This document shows, in pieces, positions 9,001 to 64,000 of a stretch of DNA of 64,000 nt. Every line of letters begins with the position of its first letter. The stretch's first letter is position 1. Below the pieces are notes generated by a model. The model was not told the DNA's origin. It saw only the letters and a program-made list of their open reading frames with translations, and did no database searches. A program made the translations under genes and the position numbers. This DNA is from Candidatus Omnitrophota bacterium (GTDB lineage: Bacteria; Omnitrophota; Omnitrophia; Omnitrophales; Aquincolibacteriaceae). The stretch spans positions 18,985-82,984 of the forward strand of contig JAHFHF010000005.1 of assembly GCA_023247055.1 (NCBI GenBank). The letters are read 5' to 3'.

Positions 9001-12000
9001 GCGCTGGATTATCTTTTTGGCGGACGTGATTCAATGATGAAACATTTTCTCCTTACGCGGGAGGGCCGGTTCATTAAAATTGACAACGAATTTTTGTTCG
9101 AATACAGTGCCACTCCGCAATACCCGAGATTGGCGGGAACCTTGGAAGCGCAAAGTGATTTTTGGGATTTTTTGGCCGCGCTGAAAGAAGGGCCGCCGAT
9201 GGAAGGCTGGGATAGCGAGGCTGCAATCAGACACGGTTTTGACCGGGTTCTGACAAAGATTGCTTTTAACGACGGCGGCGCCAAAGAACGGCTTTTTAAA
9301 ATTATAGAGACACGCAGAACGTCAGCGCAGCAGGATAGTCTTAGTCTGGATGCCATTAAACGAGGCATTGAGCAGCGTGCGGGCCACAGTTACGAATTTT
9401 TGAAGTCTATTGCAAAATCTGCCCGCTCCGAAATGCGGAGCATACCGCGCATACCCATACCGGACGCCGTCCGCGGGGAGACGTCAGACTCATCAACCTC
9501 TCCCCGCGGACGGCGTCCCGTTACGCGTCGGACTTTTCTGGGGCTTGGGATGTGGGGTGGGGTTTTACTTACCAGCTTTTCAGTGGCTAAATACTTCGGT
9601 TCGGAAACAGAACGGCAGAAAAAAATTCGTGAGTCCCGCCAACGGCGTGAAAAACAGGAAAAAATTCCTTCCAAAACTCCGTGGGACAAATTCCCGTTGG
9701 ACGATGTGAAACGTTCAGACACGGAGAAAATCCGTCAGTCGCTACAGGTTACCCTCGATTGGCTTATCCAGACGGGCTACGGCGAGGCGGATATTCTTGA
9801 CGAATACGCCGGTTACCTAGCCCAAGCCAGGCCGGGTGAGGGCCTGTATCATTCGCTTATGTCAAAAAGCTTTCACCTCAAAAAAGGCATTGAAATTGAA
9901 TTTAATGAGCGGCACCTCCTGGAACTGATCCGGCAGGTTAAAAATTCCGAATCCCTGGATCTTTTTGTCGTGACGCTGGCTGCAATGATAATGCGGGAAT
10001 CCCTCGGATTGCAAATTATGATGCATGCTCAAAAACCACTGGAAGAAATCGCGAAGGGAACCGAAAAACTGGAACTGGCGCGAAGAAAAAGAATGCCGGC
10101 AGATGAAATGAATATGTACAGTCAGCCTTTGCGCGAATTTCTTAGCCAAAATGAAAATGAAATCGACCGGCTGCTGGCTCTTTCCTTCGCTTTTGAATAT
10201 CTAGAAGCGGAAGCGGAATGGAATTTTTACGCAGCGGCCTCAGCCCGGAATGATTTTTCCGTGCAGGGCGCCAACGAAGCGCTGAACACAGTTAACGCCC
10301 GGGCTTTGGCGCTGGCAGATCGATTGAGAGTAAGTGCTGATTCGGCATCCCTGTTGATGGAAACACAGGGAGACGATTTCCTTATTTTTCGAAGCCAGCT
10401 GGCTGGAATGACGGTTGAAAAGTATCAACTTCTTAAACAAGGGGAGCTGGCGCGTAAGCGAAAAGAGTTACCCGAAGCGAATTTTTTATTAGTGAATTAC
10501 GGAACTTTTATGGAAGTAAACCGGTTTCAGCCTGCCGAAGAACCAGGCAAACAGGTAGGCCTTAGCCCAGCCATCATAGGAAGTATGGAGCGCAGGGAGT
10601 GGCCAGATTTTGACGGGTTCACGCCCTATGCTAAACGATTGTGGCCTCAGTTCCATACAGCCGTAGCTCAATTGCGCAAGGACCTTCCGTTCGCGCATGC
10701 GCTTTTCGAAGCGCAAAAAAAGGACTTGCTCCGCAGAATGAAGCGCTTGGGTAGCGACTTGAAGCCGCTGCTAGATCGTAAGTCGCGGCCTGAAGCCCCT
10801 CTTTTCGACGGCGGGGCCAAGGCCGGCAATGCTGCCTCCGTCCGTTCTGAGATGCAATTTGTTACGCCAGACTCATCAACCTCTCCCCCCGGACGGCGTC
10901 CCGTTACAACAGATGAAATCTTGAAAACCATTATTTCCAAAGCCCGCTCTGAGATCCGGAAAACGCTGATTTTTGCGGCGGTTGTTTCAGGGGGCGCCTT
11001 GCTCGCGGCTGTGGGCTATCTGAAATGGCCGAGCATTCAACGCTGGTTTGAAAGCCGCAAGAGTCCGGAAGAACCGTCAAGCGGCCGGCGCGATTTCCTG
11101 AAGCAGGCTTTAGCGGCCGCCAGTGCTGCGGCATTAAAACCATCACGAGGGCTGTTAGGAGTTTTGAGCCCGGCGTTAAAGCCGGAGTTTACCATCAAGA
11201 CTGCCATGGGGCAGGTCGCACAAGAGGAAGCGGTGTCATGGATAAAAATAGTGACAGGCATCGAGACAACGCCTTCCGTTTTACCGCCTATCTTGTCACC
11301 TAATAAATCGGTTGTTGAATTTGTGAAAGCCATTGAAGTAGAGCCTATTTCATCCTGGGAAAACCTTGTACCGCCGGGTTATGAGCATTTGCTCGGCCCA
11401 TCGCTTGGAGGTATGTCCGATCTGCGTACGGTTATGATCAACGAATTCATCGGCCGTTTGGCCGAAAAAAAATTGTCTAATGGCCGTTCCCCGCTGGAAA
11501 ACTTTGGGATTTACGAGCCCCTTGGAAGTGGGCGGCGCACTTACACCGTTGCAGGAGAAACTTATACTGACTATGGGCTAACTTTCGAATTGCGTGATAT
11601 TGCAGATTTAATTAAGCAGCATTTGCCCGACGGATTTGAAGATGCGGCATGGACCGATGCGGCGCTGGATCGCGCTGTCAGTCATTTTGCACAGGCGCTG
11701 ACAACCAATCCCGCATTGCAAAATCAAGTTCGAAAATTTCGCCAGGTTAAAACTCAAGAGCGAAGCCGAAAACTTCAGCAGCGCCGTGATGGTGAAGAAA
11801 ATCTGGTGATGCTCAAAAAACAACTTGCCGTCGCAGAGCGCTCACGCCGCGATTTTGCGAATGGCGTTGGTTTCGACGGTATGCGTGATTTCCGTACCGA
11901 CATAGATGAACTGGATGACCGAATCAAAAAGTTGACAGATCAAATCCGGTGGGAAGAGACCTATGTTCTGACGCTCAAAACCGCTCTTTCTGCCCGCTCC

Positions 12001-27500: not shown

Positions 27501-28075
27501 TATATGCTTTCTTCGGCCGCATGTTTAATTATCCCAACGCGGTTTTCAGCGAAGCGATGCTTAAACCCGAATTGCAAAGCATGGATATTTTTGCCGACGG
27601 CGTTGACAACATTGTTTCTGCGGGTAAAACCGCCGCGCAGTCTTACTTCGCCGACGGCAGCGTGGAATTGGCCATTCCGCCGCTTAAGGCCCTTTTGCAC
27701 ATCATGGTTCATGGTCATTACGAAGGCAAAGATGTTCAGCATGCCGGCATCCGGGCCCTCTTCACTCGCGAGACCCTGCTCAAATCGGCGTGGTATGAAG
27801 AGCGTTTAAGTGCCAAACAAAACGCGGACGTCCGGCTTTGGCAGCGCCAGGTCAAATACCTTGAAGATTTTCTGGTCAAGCCGAGCCACATTGAATCCAT
27901 TGCCGATCTCAGCCTCCGCCAGCGGCTGGCGTTTGCGCGCAAAGAACTTGCGCGCGTACAGGCCAAAGATTACGTGAAATGGCTGCAGGGAACCTTGGGT
28001 CTTGATCCCGGGGTTTTCAAAAAAGAAAATACAGTGGCGGGTTTAGAACCCGCCTCTACCCGAGGAATTGTTTGA
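24572..28075 (+). CDS. Large (about 1,167 aa) soluble enzyme; tentatively the PPi-dependent phosphoenolpyruvate carboxykinase (EC 4.1.1.38) family, otherwise a conserved hypothetical protein.
   Basis: Single long ORF (24452..28075 in the track; first Met at 24572, MDSPKAAGLDP...). The size class and general character match the ~1,100-1,200 aa PPi-PEPCK family. No motif-level confirmation is possible from memory. Confidence 0.3.
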   Translation: MDSPKAAGLDPGQKTAFSDKNKLIQYINLKLAALNQPICGKSDDLIEIARPLLRNHQEKNRLLYQHLCPVDRRIQNFLDDYLKDVPNREKARLPAQTFTLDFYGLARMISLPVTADVFTSDIVNSYRLKQGVLHNPKNDRRTTHGVFHITEGGLPIPDDKKAVPPGVFAAMLSHALRPSRELLRLPFTSDQKKQAELFVSLLLRPMVVPEVRGFTPRKSMEIRFFAPGNLVGNLDFVESIFGNAGDPYLPENDAALDVEHWTGHTGCVILAPHLLTLTKKELGLPHHGEATERQRRDGMCWQSPDERYNEGEAFKLTCRDERGVIVTIIADNYFGYCKKEVKTQISYAANLYGMAEEEHSGGAIAFPSYVLGESFHFEGKLPQNGLNFDDMVVQYADFMDLKPEGYAIDKNYPDIIYVPADARLSVKHEKVTWEARGREHAIKLLPWQTYVYPSGYKVQMQKHTGSGIWRLTGTVSEGTLCHKPCTVSGGGKSEISKSIEYAIIHGPVFVADFYKDMDVVDQILAHDFSGRFVQKFSDKRPSRSILSEERSLGSVIKLLTQSPEYTDTYNAWLNSLAPHIREFVFILKRYYKPEWGGDWRSHFTVDIINGYMGHELKYDDRKLVANYLRVGEEKDGVWRTFKLRQDFNAAVKIQAEDDITASVVVPAQHLKYLNAEYAQPFVKMVANCEYRLFQRPDDAIHRGFDKQAEKDICSNDVFLSNWQPLTLEEARDLVEDATGIDQYSKPMGDFIRGIETENKPVYFVSSAHPRIVDGKPSKNPRYLQDRPDLINPRQTYLADIGARLFRKVPAAEPVYFPVNAVLSGRRNNPPDPAHHLRPLAVYNPIHYQELPELFIDFIASVTGKSPSTTGAGSEGALTKGPFNALLPVIDLNNALVSFILTGHQGFSSAAGYVGPNIRVDHDISLLIPEIWCRMSLAERDPQFLIKNGYLEKLADFDHKGSRVLASRLGYRITMRFVYAFFGRMFNYPNAVFSEAMLKPELQSMDIFADGVDNIVSAGKTAAQSYFADGSVELAIPPLKALLHIMVHGHYEGKDVQHAGIRALFTRETLLKSAWYEERLSAKQNADVRLWQRQVKYLEDFLVKPSHIESIADLSLRQRLAFARKELARVQAKDYVKWLQGTLGLDPGVFKKENTVAGLEPASTRGIV

Positions 28076-28081
28076 TTTTTC

Positions 28082-28109
28082 GTAGTGGCAATTCATGAAT
28101 TGCCACTAC
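28082..28109 (+). terminator. Perfect palindrome GTAGTGGCAATTC-ATG-AATTGCCACTAC (12-bp stem) just after the large enzyme gene and before the mscS ribosome-binding site.
   Basis: The inverted repeat is read directly from the sequence. No U-tract follows it, so it could be a terminator-like or processing hairpin. A related half-sequence (GTAGTGGCAAT) recurs at 39118. Confidence 0.4.
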
Positions 28110-28129
28110 AAATAGAAACAGGAGGTTTT

Positions 28130-28963: not shown

Positions 28964-29064
28964 AAATCAAAAAGCAGCGGTCTCATAAGTTTTTTCGTAA
29001 ACCCCAACGATAGACTCGTCATTGCGAAGCAGCGTTTCACGGAAGCTGAAGCAATCTCGCTGTT

Positions 29065-31546: not shown

Positions 31547-31559
31547 AGATTTTTACGCG

Positions 31560-31578
31560 GGCGGGTTTAGAACCCGCC
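31560..31578. repeat. Short hairpin GGCGGG-TTTAGAA-CCCGCC; an identical copy is at 28037..28055.
   Basis: Exact 19-nt match between two sites, each a 6-bp GC stem. One copy lies in the livH-livM spacer and the other inside the 3' end of the large enzyme CDS (encoding GLEPAST). Confidence 0.5.
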
Positions 31579-31597
31579 ACTGCAGATTTTGTAAACA

Positions 31598-31630
31598 TTT
31601 GTAGTGTACAGGCATGCCTGTACACTACAA
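31598..31630. repeat. Perfect 33-nt palindrome TTTGTAGTGTACAGG-CATG-CCTGTACACTACAAA in the livH-livM intercistronic spacer.
   Basis: Read directly from the sequence: 14-15 bp arms around a GGCATGCC core. Similar GGCATGCC-centred hairpins occur at about 52001-52040 and 53915-53945. Confidence 0.6.
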
Positions 31631-31659
31631 ATCGGCAGGGGACGATCCGCCCGCCCCCC

Positions 31660-32722: not shown

Positions 32723-33874
32723 TTATTCCGCCGGTCCGATATAAACCAGTTTGCCGTTTTGGACTTGGAAAACGCCGATAAATTGTTTTTCATTGTCGCC
32801 AATGGCATTGAATTTGACTTCGCCGGTAATACCGGTAAAGGAGGGGATTTCGCGCATCGCTTTTAAAATCGCTTCACGGTTCTTGACGCCGGCTTTACGG
32901 ATGGCAGCGATTAAAATATTCGTGGCATCGTAGCTGTAGGCGGACCACTGTCCGAGCTCACCGTAGCGGGCGCGGAACGCGGCGATAAAATCTTTAGCGG
33001 CCGGAATTTTTTCAACATCGCCGCCGACCATGGTGGCATAGGTGCCTTCGGCAATAGGCGCGCTGGCAAGTTCAACCAAAATCAGCGTGGCAATACCGTC
33101 GCCGCCTATAAACGGGATCGGGATGCCCAGCCCCCGCGCCTGGCGCAGCAGCAGGGCGCCCTCAGGATAAATTCCGCCAAAATAAATGAATTCAGGCGCA
33201 AGCGGTTTAATGCGGGTCAGAAGCGGCGTGAAATCCTTGTCGCCCTGGGTTATGCTCTCATGGCCGAGAACGGTCATGCCAAGTTTTAAGGCTTCTTTTT
33301 TGAATTCATCCGCCAAACCTTTACCGTAGGTCGTTTTGTCATCAATGATAAAAACTTTTTTGAGTCCCAGTTGATGGGCCGCGAATTTTGCACCGCTCGG
33401 CCCTTGAACGTCGTCAGTTGCAGAAACCCGGAAAAAGGTATCAAAGCCTTGTTTGGAAAGTTCAGGGTTGGTCGAGCCTGCCGTCAATTCGGTGAGACGG
33501 GCCTCGTAATAAATGGCGGAAGCGGGCTTGGTGCAGCTGGAATTGAAATGCCCCATGACGGCCATGACGTCGCTGTCGGAAACAAATTTCTTGGCAACGT
33601 TCACGGCTTGGGCCGGATTGCGCTGGTCATCCAACAGGAGCGCCTCGAGTTTATAACCAGGAATAATTTCGCCCTGCTGATTAGTTTCTGCAACGGCAAG
33701 TTCAAGGCCGCGGCACAGGTCCAGGCCCAACTGGGCCTGGTCGCCGGTCAAAGGCGCCGCACAGCCGATTTTGATGACGGGGGCGGAACTTTCTCCGGAA
33801 CAGCCGGCGAGCGCTGAGAGTAAAAATGCGGTGGCAAGGTGTCTTATCTTAATTTTAGAATGAAAAAAACGCAT
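32723..33874 (-). CDS. livK: Branched-chain amino acid ABC transporter periplasmic substrate-binding lipoprotein (LivK/LivJ family).
   Basis: Signal peptide with lipobox LAGCSG, and the type I periplasmic binding fold signature (IKIGCAAPLTGDQAQLG...). It is the first gene of the operon. Confidence 0.85.
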   Translation of the reverse strand: MRFFHSKIKIRHLATAFLLSALAGCSGESSAPVIKIGCAAPLTGDQAQLGLDLCRGLELAVAETNQQGEIIPGYKLEALLLDDQRNPAQAVNVAKKFVSDSDVMAVMGHFNSSCTKPASAIYYEARLTELTAGSTNPELSKQGFDTFFRVSATDDVQGPSGAKFAAHQLGLKKVFIIDDKTTYGKGLADEFKKEALKLGMTVLGHESITQGDKDFTPLLTRIKPLAPEFIYFGGIYPEGALLLRQARGLGIPIPFIGGDGIATLILVELASAPIAEGTYATMVGGDVEKIPAAKDFIAAFRARYGELGQWSAYSYDATNILIAAIRKAGVKNREAILKAMREIPSFTGITGEVKFNAIGDNEKQFIGVFQVQNGKLVYIGPAE

Positions 33875-33939
33875 GAATTATCAGTATAAAGAAATTAAGC
33901 TGCTTTGGCAACGGGACTTGCTTCTTGGAGTATAAAAAA

Positions 33940-34167
33940 GCAGAATAGAGCCGATATTGAAACATCCACGACACAGCCCATCAGGCTGTGCGTGGACAGT
34001 CTCTGCGATAGACGCAGAGGCAGAATAGAGCCGATATTGAAACATCCACGACACAGCCCATCAGGCTGTGCATGGACAGTCTCTGCGATAGACGCAGAGG
34101 CAGAATAGAGCCGATATTGAAACATCCACGACACAGCCCATCAGGCTGTGCGTGGACAAGTCTCTAC
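33940..34167. repeat. Tandem direct repeat: 80-bp unit x 2.85 (copies start at 33940, 34020 and 34100). Each unit contains two stem-loops.
   Basis: Units are near-identical, with one G/A difference in copy 2 and a truncated, diverged copy 3. Each unit contains CCACGACACAGCC-CATCA-GGCTGTGCGTGG and CTCTGCG-ATAGA-CGCAGAG. The units are contiguous with no spacers. The array lies in the divergent region between the livK start (33874, - strand) and the secreted-protein gene (34218, + strand). Confidence 0.9.
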
Positions 34168-34217
34168 ACTTTGTTTTTTACGGTTGTTATCTCCAAAACG
34201 GATTCAAAGGAGTTTGT

Positions 34218-35012
34218 ATGACGTCTTTTAAAAAAATGGCAGCAATTTTTATCGCAGCAGGACTCTTGATGCCGGCTCATGCGCATGCGGCGGCGCTGGA
34301 AGGTGAAGTTGTCTCGCTGGCCCCTATGGAATCCGGTCTTTGGAAAGTCGTGATCAAGGCAGCGGGCGGTAAGCAAAGTTTGGTTCTTTCTGCAAAAAGT
34401 GCGATCCTGAAAGAAGTCCGGGTCGAAGACATCAAGCAGGGAGACCGGCTGGCCAGCACGAACAGGGGTTCCCAGGGGGGAACCAAGGGACTGAAAGCGC
34501 CTTTTGGAAATATGTCGGCGGGCGCCAAAAAAATGCTGGGGCTTCCCAATGTTCCGAATATTCCGGCAGTTCCCAATATTCCCAACATTCCTAATAAGCA
34601 GCAGATGAAAGGTGTGGCCCCCAAGGGCGGCGGAGCAGCCCCTCAACCCGGCGGTGGGAATCCCGGCGTCCCCCAGCCTGGCGGAGGCAAATCGGCGGCA
34701 AAAGAAGAACCGCCGCCGGTCAAGACCCAGGACGAAATGCTGCAAGAAAAAGGTTTTCAGAATGAAAAGTTGCTTTTCCCGCCCACGGAAGGTGAGATTG
34801 GCCCCGGCGAAGAAGTCACGCAGGTGCGCAAGGTCGACCAAGGCTTTGAAGTAACGCTGCTTTCGAGCACGGGCAAACCGGAGAAACAAACCTATGCGCC
34901 GGGCAAAAAAGTGGTCAAAGTGTTAAGCCCTGGTGATTTGAAGAAAAAAGACCGCGTCAGCCTCGACTTTAATGAGAAGGACAAAACGGTCACTCAATTA
35001 AAAATCAAGTGA
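34218..35012 (+). CDS. Secreted low-complexity protein (signal peptide; Pro/Asn/Ile and Gly/Pro-rich repeats).
   Basis: AAGGAG lies 6 nt upstream of the ATG at 34218. Signal peptide MTSFKKMAAIFIAAGLLMPAHAHAAA; repeats NVPNIPAVPNIPNIPN and GGGAAPQPGGGNPGVPQPGGG. Confidence 0.6.
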   Translation: MTSFKKMAAIFIAAGLLMPAHAHAAALEGEVVSLAPMESGLWKVVIKAAGGKQSLVLSAKSAILKEVRVEDIKQGDRLASTNRGSQGGTKGLKAPFGNMSAGAKKMLGLPNVPNIPAVPNIPNIPNKQQMKGVAPKGGGAAPQPGGGNPGVPQPGGGKSAAKEEPPPVKTQDEMLQEKGFQNEKLLFPPTEGEIGPGEEVTQVRKVDQGFEVTLLSSTGKPEKQTYAPGKKVVKVLSPGDLKKKDRVSLDFNEKDKTVTQLKIK

Positions 35013-44134: not shown

Positions 44135-44193
44135 CACAAATCACTTTTTAAGGAAACGGGTTCATAAGCCTTCTAAATCTAATCACTGGCTTG

Positions 44194-44292
44194 TCATTGC
44201 GGGCTCTCGCTGTTTTTTTAGCGTGCGCCGAAGCAATCTCAAGAGCAAACGAGATTGCTTCGGCCTCAAATTGAATGTTGCCTCGCAATGAC
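44194..44292. mobile_element. MITE/REP-like element (~100 bp) with terminal inverted repeats GTCATTGCGGGC / GCCTCGCAATGAC and a perfect internal hairpin.
   Basis: Internal 13-bp hairpin CCGAAGCAATCTC-AAGAGCAAAC-GAGATTGCTTCGG. Related copies are at 47592-47685, 47698-47783 and 52056-52146, with a partial copy at 29018-29062. Confidence 0.6.
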
Positions 44293-44470
44293 GAGAATGA
44301 CATGGGATCAACAATCACATGCATGATCGTATTTGCCTCCGCGCAAATGCGAGAATGACATGGGATCAACAATCACATGCATGATCGTATTTGCCTCCGC
44401 GCAAATGCGAGAATGACATGGGATCAACAATCACATGCATGATCGTATTTGCCTCCGCGCAAATGCGAGG
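44283..44470. repeat. Tandem repeat, 58-bp unit x about 3 (period measured between 44341 and 44399), abutting the MITE end.
   Basis: Unit GCGCAAATGCGAGAATGACATGGGATCAACAATCACATGCATGATCGTATTTGCCTCC repeated exactly. The first copy is a variant that contains the MITE terminus (TGCCTCGCAATGACGAGAATGACATGGG). Confidence 0.85.
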
Positions 44471-44523
44471 CAGCGGCTAGAGTTACAGGGACTTATGAAA
44501 CCGGCTCCTTGTGACTTTTAAAT

Positions 44524-47584: not shown

Positions 47585-47591
47585 ATTTTTG

Positions 47592-47783
47592 GCATTGCGA
47601 GGCAGCGAGGCACTAAAACTGAATCGGTCTCAATGAGATTGCTTCGACGTCCGTTGAATGTTGTCTCGCAATGACAAAAAAAGTGGTCCTTTGTCATTGC
47701 GAAGCAGTGAGGCATTAAGGCTGAAGCAATCCCAATGAGATTGCTTTGGCTTCAATGGGTACGCCGCCTCGCAATGACAAAGT
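47592..47783. mobile_element. Two tandem copies of the GTCATTGCG-type MITE/REP-like element (47592-47685 and 47698-47783).
   Basis: Each copy has CATTGCGAGGCAG...GAGATTGCTT...CTCGCAATGAC architecture, with an internal GAAGCAATC/GAGATTGCTT palindrome. Confidence 0.6.
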
Positions 47784-52055: not shown

Positions 52056-52146
52056 GTCATTGCGGGCAACGTTCACTTTGATGCCGAAGCAATCTCGGTT
52101 GCTTTTGGGATTGCTTCAGCTTCAGTGGAATGCCGCTTCGCAATGA
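52056..52146. mobile_element. GTCATTGCG-type MITE/REP-like element copy between cobA/hemD and hemB.
   Basis: GTCATTGCGGGCAACG...GCCGAAGCAATCTCGGTTGCTTTTGGGATTGCTTCAGC...GCCGCTTCGCAATGATG. Confidence 0.55.
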
Positions 52147-55084: not shown

Positions 55085-55537
55085 AAGATCTCATTTCTGA
55101 TTACGCAAGTTGAAAAATATTTTTTCGCCGTATAAAGATTCCTCAGCTTAAAATTATATCTTATAGGTATCTTTTATTCTAAAAAATACATCTAATGATA
55201 AAAAAAGCATCTGAAGACCGCTTTTGGACTTATGACAAATATGTGTTTGGCGCGCTTCGAAAAAACCATACTTTTTTGTCTTGCAAGGATGACAGACGTA
55301 AATACTCTATGCCGTAACTGCTTTTATCATAAGGAGTTATATCCATATACTATATACAAAAAATTTTGGCATGGATGATGCTATATTCCCGCCTTCTGCG
55401 AAATCAAAAGGCAAATATGACTGAGCAGCAGCCTCTGGAATGAAAAACAAGGCATTTTTTTTGTCTAATAATTAAGGAGTTTAAAAATTAATTATTAAAT
55501 TATTTTTAGTAAATTTTTTATTTTGAAGAGGGAGACA

Positions 55538-58500
55538 ATGAACCTTGAGCAAGTTCATACTACGCTAGAAAAAAAAACAAAGACTGCGGCAACGAAAGGC
55601 TATAAAAAAATCGTTGCGGTCTTTTTGGCCGTCCTTTTAATTCTACAAGAGGCTGTTTTCGCAACTCCCTCCGGGAATTTTATCTCCGGAACGCTGACAA
55701 CAACGCCCTCTGCGATTTCCGATCTCGTTTTACCCCGCGCCAGAGTTCTTGAAGGTATTTTTGCCCGTCTCCATTTGCCCGCCGAATTTGGGAAAATTGA
55801 CAATTTTTATTGGGGAGACTCCCGCCGGACAGTGATCCATATTCGCGATTTGCACATCAATACAGAAGCTCAGCATAAGATCGCCCGCATAATCCAGCGG
55901 GTGTCAGAACGTTATGGCGTCCGCCTTGTACTGCTTGAAGGAACTTCGGGAGAACTGGCGCATGGGCTGCTTTCCCGTTATCCCGACCGCAAAGCGCGCG
56001 TGTTGACCGGCCGGGCCTTTTTAAACGAGGGTAAAATGACGGGGCCCGAATATTTGGCCGTTACAAGAAATCCAGGTTTGATTCTTTATGGAGTCGAAAA
56101 TCAAGAACTTTATGAGCAGAACCGCGCGGCACTCCTGAAGGCCGTGGATCTGGGACACGGATTGAAAGGACATTTGGAAGATCTGCGGGAAAATGTAAAA
56201 ACGCTGGCTGTCCGGATTTTTCAAAAAAATATCAGGGACTGGATTAAAAACCGCGAATTATTTCAGAATAACCAGCAGTCCATCGCAGACTACGCCCGTT
56301 TTTTGAAGCAGGTTTGCGAGCAGGAAAATCTGCCAACAGATACGCCCCAACTCCGGCGTCTGTTAAAACTTGAAAAAATTGAGAGCCGGCTGCGGCGGGA
56401 AGGACGCTTTAAGAACGAAATCGAACTCGCGCGGTATCTCGAAACGGTTTTAAAACAAGAAGGCGGTCTGGATGCGGGAATTTTCGATGAAATCAAACAA
56501 ATCGAAAAGACGCTTGAAGCGCATTGGTTTATGCCGCCGTCAGGCCTTCCCTGGGATTTGACCTCGCCAGTCTCTCAAGCCGTCAGCCAGCTTTATAAAC
56601 TTTTCCGCATTCTTGAGGTTTATAAAAAAATGTTCGCGCTCAGCCTGACACGCGAAGACGTGGAATTTCTTTATCAAAACCGCGAAGATTTTGACCCGTA
56701 CGCTTTGAGTGATGCGCTCAGCCGTTTAGGACACCGTTATTCTCTGGAGATTTCTACGCGCGCTTTCCCATTCATGGAGTTCGAAGCCGCGCTCGAGGCC
56801 TATGAAGATTTTTATAAGCTGGCGCTGGCCCGCGACGAAACACTGATGACAGAATCGTTGAAAAGCATGAAACACTACCATGAGACCATCGCAGTTCTTG
56901 TCACGGGGGGATTTCACACTCCGGCAATTGAAGAGCGATTGAAAAAAGAAGGCTATAATTTTTGCACCATTACCCCTGCACTGCAGAGCGGCATTGATTT
57001 TGCCAAAGACAAGAAACTGTATTTTAGAGCCATGCAAATGCCGCAGTCTCCGGTCGCCCGCTATGCAGGTGCTGGCGATCCAACGATGCAGCTTCAAGTG
57101 CCTAGTCTATTTCCCGTGAAAAGTGCGTTTGGGGCTTTGGGAACAAAACTAGACCTTCCCCGGTGGATGGTAACCTATGACCGCGCCGGCGATTTGGCGA
57201 CGATGATGATAGCCCTCGCAGCAACAGGGCTTCGCCGCGCCGTACCCGGCCTTCAGCCCCGCCTTCAAAGCGCATTCAACGAATTAAGTCCCGAAGAACA
57301 AGTTCTCGCCGGAATTTACCGGCGTATTCACGGAGTGCAAACGCTTGCGCGATCACTGGATGCCCGGACCGGAAGCGCCGTCGTCCCGTTTACTGCGGAC
57401 ATGGGTTTTGGATTGGAATTCAATTGGAGGCCCGCGCCGTTTGGTTCTGCCGCGTCTGAAAACCCGCGGCGGCAGAGTTTTTCATTCGTGACGCCGGACG
57501 GAGTGCGTTCCGAAGTGCGGATTTTGACCGAACCCCTGCTGGCCGATATCGCCGGCAGAAATTTTTTACGCGCAGCGCAAAAACAAAAATTCACAAGCGC
57601 TGCCGCACCGCTGCCAAGCCGCGAGCCAGCGGTCTCCATGCAGGCTAAAGTCCGGCAGGCATCCCGGGTTAGAACCACGCGCAGCATCCTTGTGAATTCC
57701 AACATTCCCGTTCCGGTTAAAACGAGGACGCCGGCAGTGAAGAGCCCTGGGCAGTTTACGTTTTCAACACTCACAGTCCCGAGTCTTAACCCGCTTCCCG
57801 AACTGGCAGCTCTGGCATTGACAGCTGCGCTTAGCGGCGGTTTTGGCATGCTGCCATGGATGGCAGTTCTCATACGCCTGAGTTGGTTTTCTTCGATTTT
57901 TGCACATGGATTCGGCCACGTTCTCTTTAAGTGGATTGTCGATCAGAATCATCCCTTTGATTTACGCGAATCCCTGGAAGGCATAAGCGCGCGTGAATTT
58001 TGGACCGGTCTTATTCCCTTCACGGCCATTTATACGCCCGGTTTATCCGCCAAAATTCCGGCGCCTGTTTCGGCGGGGGAGCGTGATGCGAAAAAAATTT
58101 CCTTTAAAGCTTTGGGGGGCCCAGCACTGAATCTGTTCGGAGCTGCCGCGGCGGCATTTTTGCTGTTTTCTACGGCGCTCAGCGGCCCAGCGGCAGCAGG
58201 GCTTTATACAGCTTTGATTTTCAATACGTTATTTGCGGCGCTTTCATGGTCGGATTATATGTCTTGGGCTGCGGGGTCGGCGCCTTGGGGGTTTGCCTGC
58301 GGTTATCTGGATTATGTGGGGCCGCGCCTCAGCACAGATGACAAATCCCTTGTCCCCGAGGATTACATTGAAAGCATCTACAACTCCACGCGTATTTTGA
58401 GCGGCCGCGGTAACCAGGCCTATGGATTTCAATCCATGGCACTCGACCGTAACGGCCATGTTGTCTTTTTAGGATTGAAAGATGTAAATCCCAAGCGCGC

Positions 58501-61500
58501 GGTGCTTCACAGCCGGCTGCGCGGCGATTTAAAAAGGGAAGTCTTGGCCGCACGGCGCGATGGTTTCAGACCGCTTGAAGATCTGATCGAGTACTCGTCC
58601 CATCTGCGTTTTGGAACTTCGACGCCGCCGTCTAAAAAAGAAACCCACCCGCATCCCAGTCCTGAACTTCTGACGACCTACTACGATTGGACAAGAGGAA
58701 CAAAAGAAATTAATGCCCGAAATGCTAATTTTCAGATCAGCGTGCGTCATAACGGGGATAACGACGGCACGAAAGAAGAAGAGCAGATTCTTGAGGCCTA
58801 TCCCATTTATGCTTTTGGCAAAGAGATGAGTTATAAAGAAATCCGCAGGGAACTGAGCCGTATCCTGTATGAGGATACCACTCAAGGAGACTCGCCTGTG
58901 ATTGCGTCGATGCTTGCGCTCTATGCAACTCAAGGCCGCTGGGGCGCTTCGGCGCGTCTGGCCTATTTGATGATGGCAGGGTCTTTGGGGGAATCCTTTA
59001 AAGGCCTGAGCCATCCGAAAGCTATTGATAAGATCACGCAGCGCTGGGGCGATATTTTTGACGCGGAGTTTCAGCGGTTTAAGACGAAGATTTTTACCCA
59101 GCAGAAGGGCCGGTGGGTCCCTGACCGTACGGTGATCGCAGGCGAATTTTTGCCGGCCCTGCATCAGAGTGCCGCCGCGCGGCTGAGAGGGGACAAGTAT
59201 CTCGGCGCCTTACCGGTGGATGTTTTGAGTGCTTTTATTGAGAGCGCTGTGTTTGCTTTTTTGCACCAAGATACTTATCGCGCGATTCAAATGCTGATGG
59301 CGACATCGCTTCCTTCGAGCACTTTCGGGCTTTCCGTGAGTTCTACGTTGGAGCCTAAGACCAAATTCTGGGTCGCGAAGGGCCAGCCCGGTGCGCTTGG
59401 ACATAATCCCGATACCGGTGCGTTCATTGCAGCTTCCGATCCGGGAGCTGTTTTCGAAGGCCTCAATGAGCGCTCACGTTTTCTGACGTTTAATGACGAT
59501 CAGGGCGAAATTATCCGGCTGGATATGTCCCAAGCCCGCGCGCCGGTTTTAAATATTTTTTCTATGGCGGCCCACCGCGAGTTGAGCCCGCAAGAGATCC
59601 AAGCGCGCTGGGTAGCCATTGCAGGCAATCCCTACATTCAACTTCCGCCTTCTCAGGACGGCCGTTCCAATTTGAAGCGCGATTTAGAAGAACTCAATGA
59701 TATTTTGATCAATGTCAATGACAGCTTCGATGCGCGGTATCGTGCCAGCCGCAAAGCCCCTTCCAATCGCATAACAGCCGACCGGTTTAATACGGCGCTG
59801 ATTGAAATAGCCCGCCAGAAAAAAAACCGGGATGATCATGAAGCAGACATCCTTTTTATTGCGGAAGGTCCGAGTTACGACTTGCTTCAGCGCAAAATTC
59901 AAGACTTGAAATCCCTCGCTCCCGGCATCCGCGTCCACGTCGTTCAGGGCAATCAGTATATGGAAAATAAAGATGCGTATTACTCCGGCATCGGATCGGC
60001 TTTTAAAATCGGAAAAGAGACCATTGTTTTTTCGGTCAGCCAATCGGGTATGACGTTTTCGAATGTCGAAGCTGTCCGCGATGCGGAAATTATGAGAAAA
60101 AACAGCCTGCTCAAGGATGTTTTTGTAATGACAGGAGAGTGGTTCAGCGTTTTAGGGCGCTCTCTGGGCCAGGATTATTTTCCGGACTCCGATTTCAGCG
60201 GGCGTATTTTTTCTAATATGAGCGGACGGCGCTATTCCGAAGCGGCCACGATGGCAGATGCGACTGACTTTTTTCTAACTAAACTTTTAATCGATGCTTT
60301 TAAAAATCTGGCGGCCCAAAGCCCGGCCGATGTTTCCGCGGCCCCGCTGTTTGGGGTGAAGTTATCCGTTTCTGAACTCAACCGGCTTGAAGCCAATATT
60401 GCTCCGTTTTTGCATAGCGGGATCGCAAAAATTACGGGCCGGGGCGCCCATGGCCGCGAGGTCCGGTCTCCGGAGAATGAGGGGCTGCTGTTGCAGGGGC
60501 AAGATATTGCGAATCATATCTCGGAACAATTTTTTGCGACGAGCATGGTCCGGTTCTATACCTTTGTCAGCACGCAGCTCAGCCTGCCTGTTTTTAAAGT
60601 GCTGGCGCTTCTTTTCACGATGACCGCTCTATGGGCTACGGGCGTCGAATCTTTCAGCGTGCTTCTTCAGAATATTTCGACGCTGGAAATGGCGATGTTT
60701 TTCGGCGTTTGGTTTATCGCCCACGAGGCCGACGCCTTTTTTTATACCTGGCAGGACAAATTTTTTATTTATCTTATCCGGTTTATGCAGGGAAGAGAAA
60801 TCATGGCGCGCACCGGTTCCCGTTTTCTCGCCATCGGAGGCCCCTACTGGTCGCTGTTAAGAGACTACTTCCGCGCCGCTTTGCTCGAAGCGCCTGCGGG
60901 ACTGCAGCTGGCGGGCGTCGATGGGCGAGAAACGGCCGGTGATTTTGTGCATCGCTTCAAAGACTCGCCGCGCGGGACGCTGGTACTTATTCAGACGGCC
61001 GATCCTGAAAATGCGACGACGGCGCAGGATTCCGCGGCCGGGGCCTGGAAAATGGCCATGAGCCAGCTCGACGGCGTGCGTAATTTTAATGTCGGGCCTT
61101 ATATTCTTGCCAATACCACCAACCCGAAGCTAGCCGGGCGCTATAAGGCCCGGACCGTCGCCGTGAGCGCTCCCGCAGTTCAAGCCCCGGATGACATTGA
61201 CCGCATGCTGAACGTGCGCTGGTTTGAGGAATTGAAACTTCTGGTGAGCGGCCAGGTCATTGCTGCCGAAATGGCGGAAAAACTTTCTAAAATCGAAGTG
61301 CCTTTTTATGTGCGCCGCTCCGAGTCTGCCTATGCCTATCTTTTGCAAGCATTTCTTGGATTTTTTTCACGCATTTATTCTGCACTGGTCCTGCGGGCCA
61401 ATGATTTCATGATGCAGAATTTATTCCGCGCGGCGCCCTATGACCGCATGTTTACGCCGGGTAAAGGACAGAGCGGCTTGACTGTTTTCACCACGCAAAT

Positions 61501-64000
61501 CAATGCTCCCCGGCCGAATAAAACCGGTGAAACTAAACGGGACATCCGTGCGATCGCGCATCGACTGATGCAAGAAGGCATTGACACAAGCATGCCTTGG
61601 CTTCCTAAAGCCGGCGTGTTTGCGTTCATCTATGCCGATCTTTACAATCCGGCATCTGAAAGAAACGCCGCTCCGGTTGTCGCGATACAAATGCCGGAAA
61701 TCTTGAAATCTGTTGTGAAACCCCAGACACTGCAATCGGATACAGAAACCATTTCTGAAATTGGTTTTGATTGGGGCGGTTCGCTGGCGTTAGTGATGGT
61801 GCCTCCAGCGGCCCGCCATGAACGTTTTGAGCGTCCGCCGGTTAAAAAACGTTTTATTGCGAGGCTTCCAGCCGCTGTGCCCCAGCGGGGCGAATTTGCA
61901 TGGGGCTCTTTTGAACAGCCGGCGGGCGGGGAGCGTCCGCGTTCCGAAATGAGAAATGCCGTGCCCCGAGTGGAAGTCATCGAAGCAGGCCGGAGATTTA
62001 TTCTGACCCTGCCGGCTTCTTCCGGAGCTCAAATTCAGGATCTTTCTGGCAGGACGTTCGAAACATTGACCTTTGACCGGATTGACGGTGCTTATCAAAC
62101 CGCCGATGGCGGCATGACAGCCTCCCTGGATGCTCAAAAACAACGGCTGGTTTTTTTAGGAACGCGTTACGGTTTTGCGGATATCCGGGGAAAAAAAGCG
62201 GTCGTCTATAAACAATTTAATCTGCCGCTGGAGAGCACGGTTTTCGAGCACTTACAAGACCCTTTGCGTGTGCCGCAAGTACTGCCGTTGCCGCCGTCCA
62301 TTTCACCGCCGACTTCCGGATATTCTGCCCCGCTGTCGTATGCGCCGCCGCTGCAGATGCAGAGTCCTATTCCGCGGGGTCTCTTAAAAATCTCGATCAT
62401 GGGAGTGCTGATCGCCGGAGCCGTGTTGGCTTTCTCCGAAGGCTGGATTCCGACTGCCGCCGCTTCTGCAATAGCGACGTTTCAACTCCCATGGACATCT
62501 TCAAGCAGCGCTATGCATCTGGCCTATGGGGGTGGTTTAACCGCCGCCGGGCTCTTGATAGTCTGGGAAACGCGCGACCGTTCGACGCGCAGTTCGCGGA
62601 TGGCATGGACAGCCCGTTTGCGCGGCTGGCTCTTTCGCAGTCTTTTTGTCGGATTTTTTCCCGTGTTTGGATATGCGATCCTGGCTTTCGAACTTGCGCC
62701 GCTGCCGGTGCTCGCGGCCGGACTCTGGCTTTTTTATGGAACTCTTTTTGCCGGCGCGTTTGTTTTTATTTGGGCTCTTACAGTCATGAGCCTGCCCTTT
62801 CGCCGCTGGCTGCCACCTGCCGTTGCGTCTTGGTTTTCATTCAAAAAAGATGTGGCCGCCTTGCTCGGAGTGGCTTTCTTGGCTGCAGCAGGGTATCTAG
62901 GAGCGCAGTCGAATTTGGCACCGTCGATTTTACCCTATCTGCAGGGTTGGATTCCTCTACAGAAAACTTCTACCCTTCCCGAAGAAAACCATCCTCGTCT
63001 GACAGCGCCTTTGGCTGCAGTCCATTGGCCGGCCCCGCAGCAACAACTGCCGCCGGTCTCTCAAGTGCCGCGCCGGTTGTCGCGCGATCTAGTCTCGCTT
63101 GGCTGGGATCCGGCTGCCATGCCGCCGGGTGAACCGGCCAAGGTGACCCGGCCTTCCGGGCCCCGCTCTTTTGAATTTTTAGGGGTGACGCCGCTTCTTT
63201 ACGAAGGCGGGGACGATAAAATTACCACGGTTTTTCTCCTGGCCCAAAAAGAAGGTTATCTTGAAATGGATCCTCGTTCCGGCATCCGCGCCGCCGATTG
63301 GCAGAATCCCGGCAAGGCTTTTGTGATCAAAGGGCCGCAGCCGCTGCTTCGTTACCGGCGGCCTGTGACGGAAACGGAAGCCTCGGCGCTGCGAGAGTTG
63401 ATTGAGCGTTTAAAAGAGGTGGATGCGCGCTATGAGCATGCGGATGCAGCTCTGGACCGCCGTATTGTTCCGCTGAAAACACGGTTGGCAAATAAAGAAG
63501 CCGTGATTACGGAAATCATCAATCATTTTGAAGTCGAGCAGCAGAACCAGGTTTTCGGCACGCTCCTGGCGCCTTTCAGAGCCGGAGAGGAAGGCTGGAT
63601 TCTTCCAGGCAAACGCGCGCTCGGAAGCGCCGTATCCGGGACAGCGCTGGCGCGCTTTCAGAGCCAAAATCGTTTGACGGTCCGCGTTGCCGTGCCCCTA
63701 AGCGTTTGGAAAGATTATGATTTGACGGCGATGCGTGTTGGCGTGACGCTGGAAGGCCAGGAACAAAGCGCGCGTATCGTACACCTTACGGCGGAGCCGC
63801 GTCTCGACGCTCAGATGATTTTAACGCTTGAACTTTTTTCCAAGGGAAAAATTTTTACCTGGAATACCGAAGAAAACGGTCCGGCGCACGTGCGTGTGCG
63901 GTTGGAAATGGAACCGCGGAGGGGCCCTGTTTCTTACAGTCAGAAATTTGACGCTGATGCGTTTGTGAGTTCTTATGCCGAGATTGGCACGCGCGTCCGT
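55538..64000 (+). CDS. Second giant ORF, 3'-partial (at least 2,821 codons to the window end). N-terminal signal anchor, internal multi-TM blocks, and the shared RSEVR motif.
   Basis: GAGGGAG ribosome-binding site 5 nt upstream of the ATG at 55538. Manual frame-2 translation from 55538 showed no stop codon through 64000. N-terminus MNLEQVHTTLEKKTKTAATKGYKKIVAVFLAVLLILQEAVFA. It is absent from the supplied ORF track, presumably because no stop lies in the window. Confidence 0.75.
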   Translation, partial: MNLEQVHTTLEKKTKTAATKGYKKIVAVFLAVLLILQEAVFATPSGNFISGTLTTTPSAISDLVLPRARVLEGIFARLHLPAEFGKIDNFYWGDSRRTVIHIRDLHINTEAQHKIARIIQRVSERYGVRLVLLEGTSGELAHGLLSRYPDRKARVLTGRAFLNEGKMTGPEYLAVTRNPGLILYGVENQELYEQNRAALLKAVDLGHGLKGHLEDLRENVKTLAVRIFQKNIRDWIKNRELFQNNQQSIADYARFLKQVCEQENLPTDTPQLRRLLKLEKIESRLRREGRFKNEIELARYLETVLKQEGGLDAGIFDEIKQIEKTLEAHWFMPPSGLPWDLTSPVSQAVSQLYKLFRILEVYKKMFALSLTREDVEFLYQNREDFDPYALSDALSRLGHRYSLEISTRAFPFMEFEAALEAYEDFYKLALARDETLMTESLKSMKHYHETIAVLVTGGFHTPAIEERLKKEGYNFCTITPALQSGIDFAKDKKLYFRAMQMPQSPVARYAGAGDPTMQLQVPSLFPVKSAFGALGTKLDLPRWMVTYDRAGDLATMMIALAATGLRRAVPGLQPRLQSAFNELSPEEQVLAGIYRRIHGVQTLARSLDARTGSAVVPFTADMGFGLEFNWRPAPFGSAASENPRRQSFSFVTPDGVRSEVRILTEPLLADIAGRNFLRAAQKQKFTSAAAPLPSREPAVSMQAKVRQASRVRTTRSILVNSNIPVPVKTRTPAVKSPGQFTFSTLTVPSLNPLPELAALALTAALSGGFGMLPWMAVLIRLSWFSSIFAHGFGHVLFKWIVDQNHPFDLRESLEGISAREFWTGLIPFTAIYTPGLSAKIPAPVSAGERDAKKISFKALGGPALNLFGAAAAAFLLFSTALSGPAAAGLYTALIFNTLFAALSWSDYMSWAAGSAPWGFACGYLDYVGPRLSTDDKSLVPEDYIESIYNSTRILSGRGNQAYGFQSMALDRNGHVVFLGLKDVNPKRAVLHSRLRGDLKREVLAARRDGFRPLEDLIEYSSHLRFGTSTPPSKKETHPHPSPELLTTYYDWTRGTKEINARNANFQISVRHNGDNDGTKEEEQILEAYPIYAFGKEMSYKEIRRELSRILYEDTTQGDSPVIASMLALYATQGRWGASARLAYLMMAGSLGESFKGLSHPKAIDKITQRWGDIFDAEFQRFKTKIFTQQKGRWVPDRTVIAGEFLPALHQSAAARLRGDKYLGALPVDVLSAFIESAVFAFLHQDTYRAIQMLMATSLPSSTFGLSVSSTLEPKTKFWVAKGQPGALGHNPDTGAFIAASDPGAVFEGLNERSRFLTFNDDQGEIIRLDMSQARAPVLNIFSMAAHRELSPQEIQARWVAIAGNPYIQLPPSQDGRSNLKRDLEELNDILINVNDSFDARYRASRKAPSNRITADRFNTALIEIARQKKNRDDHEADILFIAEGPSYDLLQRKIQDLKSLAPGIRVHVVQGNQYMENKDAYYSGIGSAFKIGKETIVFSVSQSGMTFSNVEAVRDAEIMRKNSLLKDVFVMTGEWFSVLGRSLGQDYFPDSDFSGRIFSNMSGRRYSEAATMADATDFFLTKLLIDAFKNLAAQSPADVSAAPLFGVKLSVSELNRLEANIAPFLHSGIAKITGRGAHGREVRSPENEGLLLQGQDIANHISEQFFATSMVRFYTFVSTQLSLPVFKVLALLFTMTALWATGVESFSVLLQNISTLEMAMFFGVWFIAHEADAFFYTWQDKFFIYLIRFMQGREIMARTGSRFLAIGGPYWSLLRDYFRAALLEAPAGLQLAGVDGRETAGDFVHRFKDSPRGTLVLIQTADPENATTAQDSAAGAWKMAMSQLDGVRNFNVGPYILANTTNPKLAGRYKARTVAVSAPAVQAPDDIDRMLNVRWFEELKLLVSGQVIAAEMAEKLSKIEVPFYVRRSESAYAYLLQAFLGFFSRIYSALVLRANDFMMQNLFRAAPYDRMFTPGKGQSGLTVFTTQINAPRPNKTGETKRDIRAIAHRLMQEGIDTSMPWLPKAGVFAFIYADLYNPASERNAAPVVAIQMPEILKSVVKPQTLQSDTETISEIGFDWGGSLALVMVPPAARHERFERPPVKKRFIARLPAAVPQRGEFAWGSFEQPAGGERPRSEMRNAVPRVEVIEAGRRFILTLPASSGAQIQDLSGRTFETLTFDRIDGAYQTADGGMTASLDAQKQRLVFLGTRYGFADIRGKKAVVYKQFNLPLESTVFEHLQDPLRVPQVLPLPPSISPPTSGYSAPLSYAPPLQMQSPIPRGLLKISIMGVLIAGAVLAFSEGWIPTAAASAIATFQLPWTSSSSAMHLAYGGGLTAAGLLIVWETRDRSTRSSRMAWTARLRGWLFRSLFVGFFPVFGYAILAFELAPLPVLAAGLWLFYGTLFAGAFVFIWALTVMSLPFRRWLPPAVASWFSFKKDVAALLGVAFLAAAGYLGAQSNLAPSILPYLQGWIPLQKTSTLPEENHPRLTAPLAAVHWPAPQQQLPPVSQVPRRLSRDLVSLGWDPAAMPPGEPAKVTRPSGPRSFEFLGVTPLLYEGGDDKITTVFLLAQKEGYLEMDPRSGIRAADWQNPGKAFVIKGPQPLLRYRRPVTETEASALRELIERLKEVDARYEHADAALDRRIVPLKTRLANKEAVITEIINHFEVEQQNQVFGTLLAPFRAGEEGWILPGKRALGSAVSGTALARFQSQNRLTVRVAVPLSVWKDYDLTAMRVGVTLEGQEQSARIVHLTAEPRLDAQMILTLELFSKGKIFTWNTEENGPAHVRVRLEMEPRRGPVSYSQKFDADAFVSSYAEIGTRVR

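Follow-up and report, generated by a model that had tools for sequence, protein, structure and literature searches.

An 80-bp tandem repeat beside the livK gene of an Omnitrophota genome probably duplicates the promoter end and early leader of the divergent operon

The window, that is, the whole stretch of 64,000 nucleotides analyzed here, encodes proteins whose named matches are mostly from Omnitrophica/Omnitrophota, and its HemA is 72% identical to HemA of 'Omnitrophica bacterium GWA2_52_12'. Within this window, a short tandem repeat array lies in the spacer between two divergently oriented operons. The operon on the - strand follows a livKHMGF-like order and starts with a gene for a livK-like lipoprotein. 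The operon on the + strand starts with the gene for a 264-aa signal-peptide protein of no known family, followed by genes for proteins of 196 aa and 192 aa (both of no known family), a 257-aa CarboxypepD_reg-like lipoprotein, two YHS proteins, a DUF2231 protein and an ArsP_1 permease, and it extends to ~39100. This gene order is conserved in relatives, in one of which a CzcCBA-like efflux system comes next. Judging from its domain content, the + strand operon looks like an envelope/metal-handling cluster. The first-pass annotation had correctly placed the array between livK and a secreted-protein gene, but the start of the latter is corrected here from a GTG at 34152 to the ATG at 34218. The features of the locus are as follows.

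32723-33874, - strand: livK-like lipoprotein gene (Peripla_BP_6, lipoprotein signal), first gene of the livKHMGF-like operon
33911-33883, - strand: predicted liv promoter, TTGCCA-17-TATACT, conserved in all 7 close orthologues
33917-33957, + strand: 41-nt block, CTTGCTT-N16-AAAAAAGCAGAATAGAGCCGATAT, conserved in 7 orthologues
33940-34019, + strand: unit A of the array, 80 bp, the sole copy with the complete conserved upstream half of the putative promoter block before it
34020-34099, + strand: unit B, 80 bp, 99% identity
34100-34165, + strand: unit C, truncated, running on into the native downstream leader
33966-33995, + strand: hairpin H1, CCACG-A-CACAGCC/GGCTGTG-CGTGG, 12-13 bp with a bulged A; copies at 34046-34075 and 34126-34155
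34001-34019, + strand: hairpin H2, CTCTGCG-ATAGA-CGCAGAG, 7-9 bp; second copy at 34081-34099, none in unit C
34170-34179, + strand: T-rich tract TTTGTTTTTT in the native leader after unit C, at a similar position in six relatives
34218-35012, + strand: gene for the 264-aa signal-peptide protein, with ATG at 34218 and the ribosome-binding site AAGGAG at 34207-34212

The array spans positions 33940-34165, with a period of 80 and 2.8 copies (97% matches, score 436, Tandem Repeats Finder). Its units are 97-99% identical, are arranged head-to-tail and abut without spacers. The earlier description of three head-to-tail units, the third truncated, is borne out by both Tandem Repeats Finder and a repeat search. 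Units A and B differ at a single position, located in the 3' arm of H1 (G at 33992 versus A at 34072). Unit C equals unit A over 59 nt, then carries an extra A (34159) and keeps GTCTCT; in the repeat search it departs after ~59-66 nt. The 14 nt that end a full unit and complete H2 (GCGATAGACGCAGAG) are missing from unit C. The array thus measures 3 x 66 + 2 x 14 = 226 nt. As this is not a whole number of units, at least one extra event is needed, either filler sequence at a junction or a subsequent deletion within copy C. Folding agrees with the two hairpins per unit described at first, namely a bulged H1 of 12-13 bp and an H2 of 7-9 bp. The array is not a CRISPR, as had also been stated: the units abut without spacers, and the neighbouring genes scanned contain no cas domains.

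The array is correctly assembled and does not represent an assembly artefact. All k-mers of at least 81 nt across the region are unique. Two k141 metagenome contigs from other samples (L001 and L002) are base-for-base identical to the window, including the single-nucleotide difference between the units, and the first base of a k=31 Logan contig of SRR14366787 lies exactly 30 nt ahead of the point where unique sequence resumes past the array. Copy number does not vary among the three identical assemblies, which derive from the same strain and possibly from one population.

Open reading frames pass through the array on both strands (79 aa on the - strand, 67 aa on the + strand). They were dismissed as coding sequences, being products of a repeat whose period of 80 is not a multiple of 3. 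A further reading frame of 49 codons (34072-34221, + strand) is headed by an ATG that the nucleotide difference in unit B makes from a GTG. It ends in a TGA (34219-34221) that overlaps with the ATG of the 264-aa gene to form ATGA. This reading frame is probably fortuitous, because no ribosome-binding site precedes it.

A protein search with the 264-aa sequence returned ten orthologues with 47-60% identity. From these loci we recovered six distinct close relatives (L004/L005, L006-L009, L010-L012, L013, L015 and L037) and a more distant one (L038). The divergent arrangement of livK and the 264-aa gene is kept in the six close relatives with spacers of 229-515 bp, the neighbour in L013, L015 and L037 being identified only from its position, the size or family of the called protein (L013) and the shared liv promoter. 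The contig of L038 carries no livK. None of the relatives examined has a tandem repeat in the spacer. A scan of metagenome contigs with a degenerate promoter motif gave 20 matches, and only one of them, L029, is orthologous (same contig as L010), the others being chance matches.

Each relative carries, exactly once, a nearly invariant 41-nt promoter-like block of the form CTTGCnT-N16-AAAAAAGCAGAATAnnGCCGATAT. A comparison of copy numbers, as proposed in the first-pass annotation, sets one copy in all seven related species against 2.8 in the window; within the strain, the three assemblies do not differ. The repeat unit opens with GCAGAATAGAGCCGATAT, which makes up the final 18 nt of the block and recurs at 34020-34037 and 34100-34117. 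Within the block, a candidate -35 element (TTGCTT, 33918-33923) is separated by a 17-nt spacer from a candidate -10 element (CAGAAT, 33941-33946), and the octamer GCCGATAT follows at 33950-33957. The octamer is invariant in 7 orthologues; the more distant L038 retains TTCAAAAAAATAGAATTCAACCGATAA, and its octamer reads ACCGATAA. In the relatives, an A/T-rich stretch resembling an UP element directly precedes CTTGC. The distance between the last GCCGATAT and the ATG of the + strand gene is 81-100 nt in every genome. By contrast, the block is separated from the liv promoter by anything between 6 and 189 bp, and its distance to livK is likewise variable. Past GCCGATAT, the leaders of the relatives are poorly conserved up to the ribosome-binding site.

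Taken as a motif, the 41-nt block reads as a sigma70-type promoter with a -35 element TTGCkT, a 17-nt spacer and a -10 element CAGAAT. The pair TTGCTT/CAGAAT agrees with the sigma70 consensus at only 7 of 12 positions and is not among the sites returned by the consensus scan. Conservation extends 11 nt beyond CAGAAT to GCCGATAT, which the sigma70 reading leaves unexplained. The block could be an operator instead of a promoter, or serve as both. In the inner copies of the array, the -35 position reads AGTCTC. A sigma54 reading (TGGCAA-N-CTTGCT, 33906-33922) was rejected on two grounds: its GG and GC are spaced by 11 nt instead of 10, and its TGGCA, which is not adjacent in the relatives, represents the liv -35 element of the opposite strand.

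The predicted liv promoter appears on the + strand as AGTATA(A/G)(A/G)GAAAT-N9-YTGGCAA and is the sole sigma70-type site in the scan. Its position, between livK and the array, places the array upstream of where liv transcription is predicted to start. The divergent -35 elements are 6 bp apart in the window versus 48-189 bp in the relatives. On the other side, the liv -10 element (TATACT, 33888-33883) is located 8 nt from the livK ATG, with no Shine-Dalgarno sequence, and livK may be leaderless in this genome. The relatives have 30-162 nt between the liv -10 element and livK, with a Shine-Dalgarno-like motif at least in L007 and L037. Putative deletions are thereby indicated on both sides of the liv promoter.

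The hairpins within the units are statistically conspicuous. The H1 30-mer occurs 3 times against 0.00 expected from shuffles, and folding yields z = -5.6 for a single unit and z = -8.5 (+ strand) and -9.3 (- strand) for the whole spacer. The relatives lack a 38-nt insertion (33958-33995) that separates GCCGATAT from ACA(A)GTCTCT in the window and contains H1. These extra 38 nt consist of TGAAACAT plus H1, and ACA(A)GTCTCT(GCG) comes only after them. At the corresponding place, L013 has GCCGATAT-ACAAGGTCTCTGCGG; in both L015 and L037 the sequence is ...CCTATGCGG. Homologues of the H2 5' arm are GTCTCTGCGG (L013) and CCTATGCGG (L015 and L037). H1 thus belongs to an insertion specific to this lineage; the H2 5' arm, on the other hand, is of ancestral origin.

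Only two leaders, those of the window (z = -4.5) and L038 (z = -8.8), show significant structure over their first 60 nt; in L038, an 18-bp perfect hairpin unrelated to H1 lies 9 nt after the promoter motif. Structure is marginal in L013 and L037, and L004, L007, L010 and L015 have none. A conserved 5' stem-loop or attenuator in the leader was rejected, as 4 of 8 orthologues lack significant structure. Neither the window nor 6 related loci yielded an Rfam hit at gathering thresholds, and for the spacer at permissive E-values the best E-value was 0.29, with no credible hit. Because neither the structure nor the leader sequence is conserved and Rfam offers no match, the hairpins do not represent a conserved RNA element. 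An intrinsic terminator or attenuator was likewise rejected: GCAGAAT follows H2 in units A and B, and unit C has 14 nt between H1 and its T-run. A terminator scan of the + strand of the array found none. The leader of L037 comes nearest to a terminator, with a 7-bp GC hairpin, 4 nt and T7.

From the comparison of orthologous spacers, we consider it likely that the promoter end and early leader of the + strand operon were recently duplicated in tandem, in the lineage of this uncultured Candidatus Omnitrophota bacterium only, and that the array is the product. The duplicated unit would comprise the downstream promoter end of this envelope/metal-handling operon plus the next 48-62 nt. Copy 1 keeps the native upstream half (CTTGCTT...AAAAAA), and copy 3 keeps the native 100-nt spacing to the ATG, as expected from a local tandem duplication in the promoter and leader. 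The duplication may have arisen through slippage during replication or through unequal recombination, either of which the palindromes may have helped. A minisatellite, one of several options offered in the first-pass annotation, fits such a locus-specific tandem duplication. Copy 1 alone would form a complete promoter (TTGCTT-17-CAGAAT), with the two inner copies constituting partial cores. If transcription starts at ~33953, the rest of the array would be carried in a ~265-nt leader with five hairpins, compared to ~90-105 nt in the relatives. The leader would be ~160 nt longer, with the native ribosome-binding region the same. The most likely effect would be neutral or a modest quantitative change in the expression of the + strand operon. 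If GCCGATAT itself were a -10 element (sigma28-like), the two inner copies could add start sites and raise expression. Under either reading, the + strand operon is the one to which the array belongs.

This last idea leads to an alternative that we regard as unlikely, in which GCCGATAT is the -10 element of an alternative, sigma28/FliA-like sigma factor that tolerates a weak -35 element, and all three copies fire. Expression of the + strand operon would then scale with the copies, and slippage may vary their number, as in a phase-variable promoter tandem repeat. Sigma28 (FliA/SigD) promoters have the form TAAA-N15-GCCGATAA/T, and GCCGATAT equals the sigma28/SigD -10 consensus, GCCGATAA/T. The octamer, as noted, is invariant in 7 orthologues and present as ACCGATAA in L038, and conservation ends directly after it, as it does for a -10 element. 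The upstream half agrees less well: TAAA, or CAAA in four orthologues, lies 13 nt before the octamer (14 nt in L037) and not at the canonical 15 nt, and the inner copies have neither the A-tract nor CTTGC. Furthermore, the operon contains no flagellar or chemotaxis genes, a search of the window and the related loci gave no further GCCGATAW promoter, and the three assemblies show no copy-number variation. Promoter tandem repeats of Mycobacterium tuberculosis act in the way that this alternative proposes (PMC12817950).

Other young arrays occur in the same genome and in a relative. A second array in the window (44287-44469, context 44190-44523) has a 58-bp unit in 3.1 copies that are 99% identical and lies between folD and panB. 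It adjoins a palindromic GTCATTGCG...GAAGCAATCTC...GAGATTGCTTCGGC...CGCAATGAC element. The orthologous folD-panB spacer in the related locus L041 measures just 60 bp, so the element and the 58-bp array are lineage-specific insertions. L041 in turn carries a 132-bp unit in 2.3 copies with 92% identity across the hemA start (9736-10044). This unit comprises the hemA start codon, the first ~15 codons and an 85-nt hairpin-containing stretch, and its repetition yields decoy starts and a called 41-aa ORF. These observations suggest that tandem duplication has recurred in this lineage at the 5' ends of genes, and the presence of young 2-3-copy arrays at gene starts in both the genome and a relative points to a general duplication process. 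A bolder extension, which we hold to be improbable, is that such recurrent promoter-proximal duplication possibly provides copy-variable tuning of expression, the present array being a slippage-driven switch of the metal-handling envelope operon, in which GCCGATAT, as an unusual -10 element, would let each copy fire.

It is still less probable, and in our view very unlikely, that the array is a locally amplified copy of a dispersed REP/BIME/MITE-like hairpin repeat. REP/BIME, BOX, ERIC and Correia-type families comprise tens to hundreds of dispersed copies. They resemble the array in their stable intergenic hairpins and, at times, their tandem clusters (BIME, boxB), but differ from it in that no second locus was found for this unit in the sequences searched. 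Three observations are consistent with a dispersed origin: H1 lies within a 38-nt insertion, other palindromic families exist in the genome (GTCATTGCG...CGCAATGAC elements and TTGTAGTG-ended palindromes), and the leader of L038 has its own unrelated 18-bp hairpin together with a MITE-like insertion. Against this, the search for the unit elsewhere, which the first-pass annotation had put forward, and that for H1 found no further copies: H1 does not recur in the 64 kb at up to 3 mismatches, nor are there copies in the related loci or a match in viral contigs. An H1 20-mer had one chance match (an Oscillospiraceae MAG) in 185,579 GTDB species genomes, among which the source species is apparently absent. 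Moreover, the unit includes orthologous, locus-specific promoter sequence.

The window contains several palindromic and dispersed elements in addition to the array. Two perfect or near-perfect palindromes without a loop (31597-31632, 36 bp; 28079-28112, 34 bp) have common TT(T/C)GTAGTG...CACTACAA ends and may form a small palindromic element family. One falls within the spacer that separates two liv permease genes (31547-31659), and the other is found where the MscS gene starts. Dispersed, MITE-like GTCATTGCGAGG...GAAGCAATC repeats with inverted ends are located at 29018, 44197-44292, 47588-47778 and 52056-52124, and at ~330-470 in L038, where the copy sits in the leader of the orthologous operon beside the 18-bp perfect hairpin. 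The hairpin GGCGGGTTTAGAACCCGCC occurs three times (7854, 28036 and 31560). Two of the copies are at gene ends or close to them: that at 28036 lies just before the stop codon of a 1207-aa ORF, and another lies in the liv permease spacer. These hairpins may be shared terminator-like elements.

The first-pass annotation had centred on the liv operon and offered, among its candidates, a phased array of Lrp-type regulator sites. We judge it highly improbable that the array consists of Lrp/AsnC-type or other regulator sites controlling liv or both divergent promoters. The position, on the upstream side of the predicted liv -35 element and ~30 to 255 bp away from it, would suit activator or repressor sites, and the conserved 18-nt core is present three times. 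In the relatives, however, this core is single-copy and tied by its distance to the + strand gene, not to liv, and the spacer there has no repeat and holds unrelated sequence; the hairpin sequences are unconserved. The period of 80 bp does correspond to 7.62 helical turns (about 7.6 had been noted), but it does not support phasing: successive copies face ~223 degrees apart and are out of helical phase. Matches to the Lrp consensus, which is that of E. coli and maybe not the host's, are absent from 33875-34217 and at chance level window-wide, and no Lrp/AsnC domain was detected among the window ORFs scanned. Lrp sites at the ilvIH and liv promoters of E. coli are degenerate 15-mers in helical phase. 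The likeness to them is limited to several sites upstream of a branched-chain amino-acid operon, whereas the units here are 80 bp long, 99% identical, without a consensus match, and belong to the other gene.

The other liv-centred proposal, a structured 5' liv mRNA leader starting on the - strand to the right of the array, is barely credible: the - strand does fold strongly (z = -9.3) and the difference at 34072 would be a G-U pair in - strand RNA as opposed to a C-A mismatch in + strand RNA, but a single nucleotide difference has no statistical weight, on that strand the array is followed by the conserved sigma70-like liv promoter, 8 nt from the livK ATG, the scan found no - strand promoter-like site inside or to the right of the array, and the sequence there is unrelated in the relatives. 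As a whole, the array appears neither to regulate nor to lead the liv operon, and liv-centred readings are not supported.

Two kinds of described repeats are close to a duplication of promoter end and early leader as preferred here. MIRU-VNTR loci and other intergenic minisatellites are similar in unit size (40-100 bp), intergenic position and low copy number. MIRUs form a dispersed family at many loci, in contrast to the present unit, which is locus-specific, derives from orthologous promoter sequence and is absent elsewhere in the 64-kb window. With regard to sigma28 promoters, the likeness lies in the -10-like octamer GCCGATAT, and the difference in the TAAA/CAAA spacing of 13-14 nt and the non-flagellar genes. 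The closest described kind is the promoter tandem repeats of M. tuberculosis, VNTR loci that include dop (57 bp), lpdA (58 bp) and cysG-efpA (54-56 bp) (PMC12817950). Those repeats have mapped start sites, vary in copy number between and within strains, and have been proposed to tune promoter strength (PMC12817950). Shared features are head-to-tail, near-identical repeats of tens of bp in 2-3 or more copies directly upstream of a gene, promoter sequence within the repeat and an origin by slippage or recombination (both predicted in our case), and a first copy with native upstream context. In contrast to M. tuberculosis, the promoter here is assigned by conservation and position, three assemblies show no variation, and the unit contains only the 3' part of the promoter block together with 48-62 nt of leader and two hairpins.

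Both ends of the window are occupied by long reading frames. A giant ORF on the + strand (4-23757, at least 7917 aa) runs off the left end; its first 3000 aa have no Pfam match. It contains 10 in-frame (A)RSE(V/M)R peptide motifs encoded by near-identical DNA (CCGCTCCGAAGTGCGG), with irregular spacings that are all multiples of 3. A second long + strand ORF (~55500-64000, at least 2834 aa) runs off the right end. Small ORFs called on both strands of that region have no Pfam match and are probably spurious, and a copy of the CCGAAGTGCGG motif lies at 57501. Giant genes have been reported in Omnitrophota (bioRxiv 10.1101/2023.11.21.568195).

The chief value of these results is corrective, in that the repeat is reassigned from liv to the + strand operon. 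As a by-product, the comparison provides a sharply conserved 41-nt promoter or operator block, as we read it, for a conserved envelope/metal cluster of Omnitrophota. If the extra copies alter expression, the locus would extend promoter tandem-repeat variation beyond pathogens to an uncultured, host-associated phylum, and the array would be a potential strain-typing marker in metagenomes.
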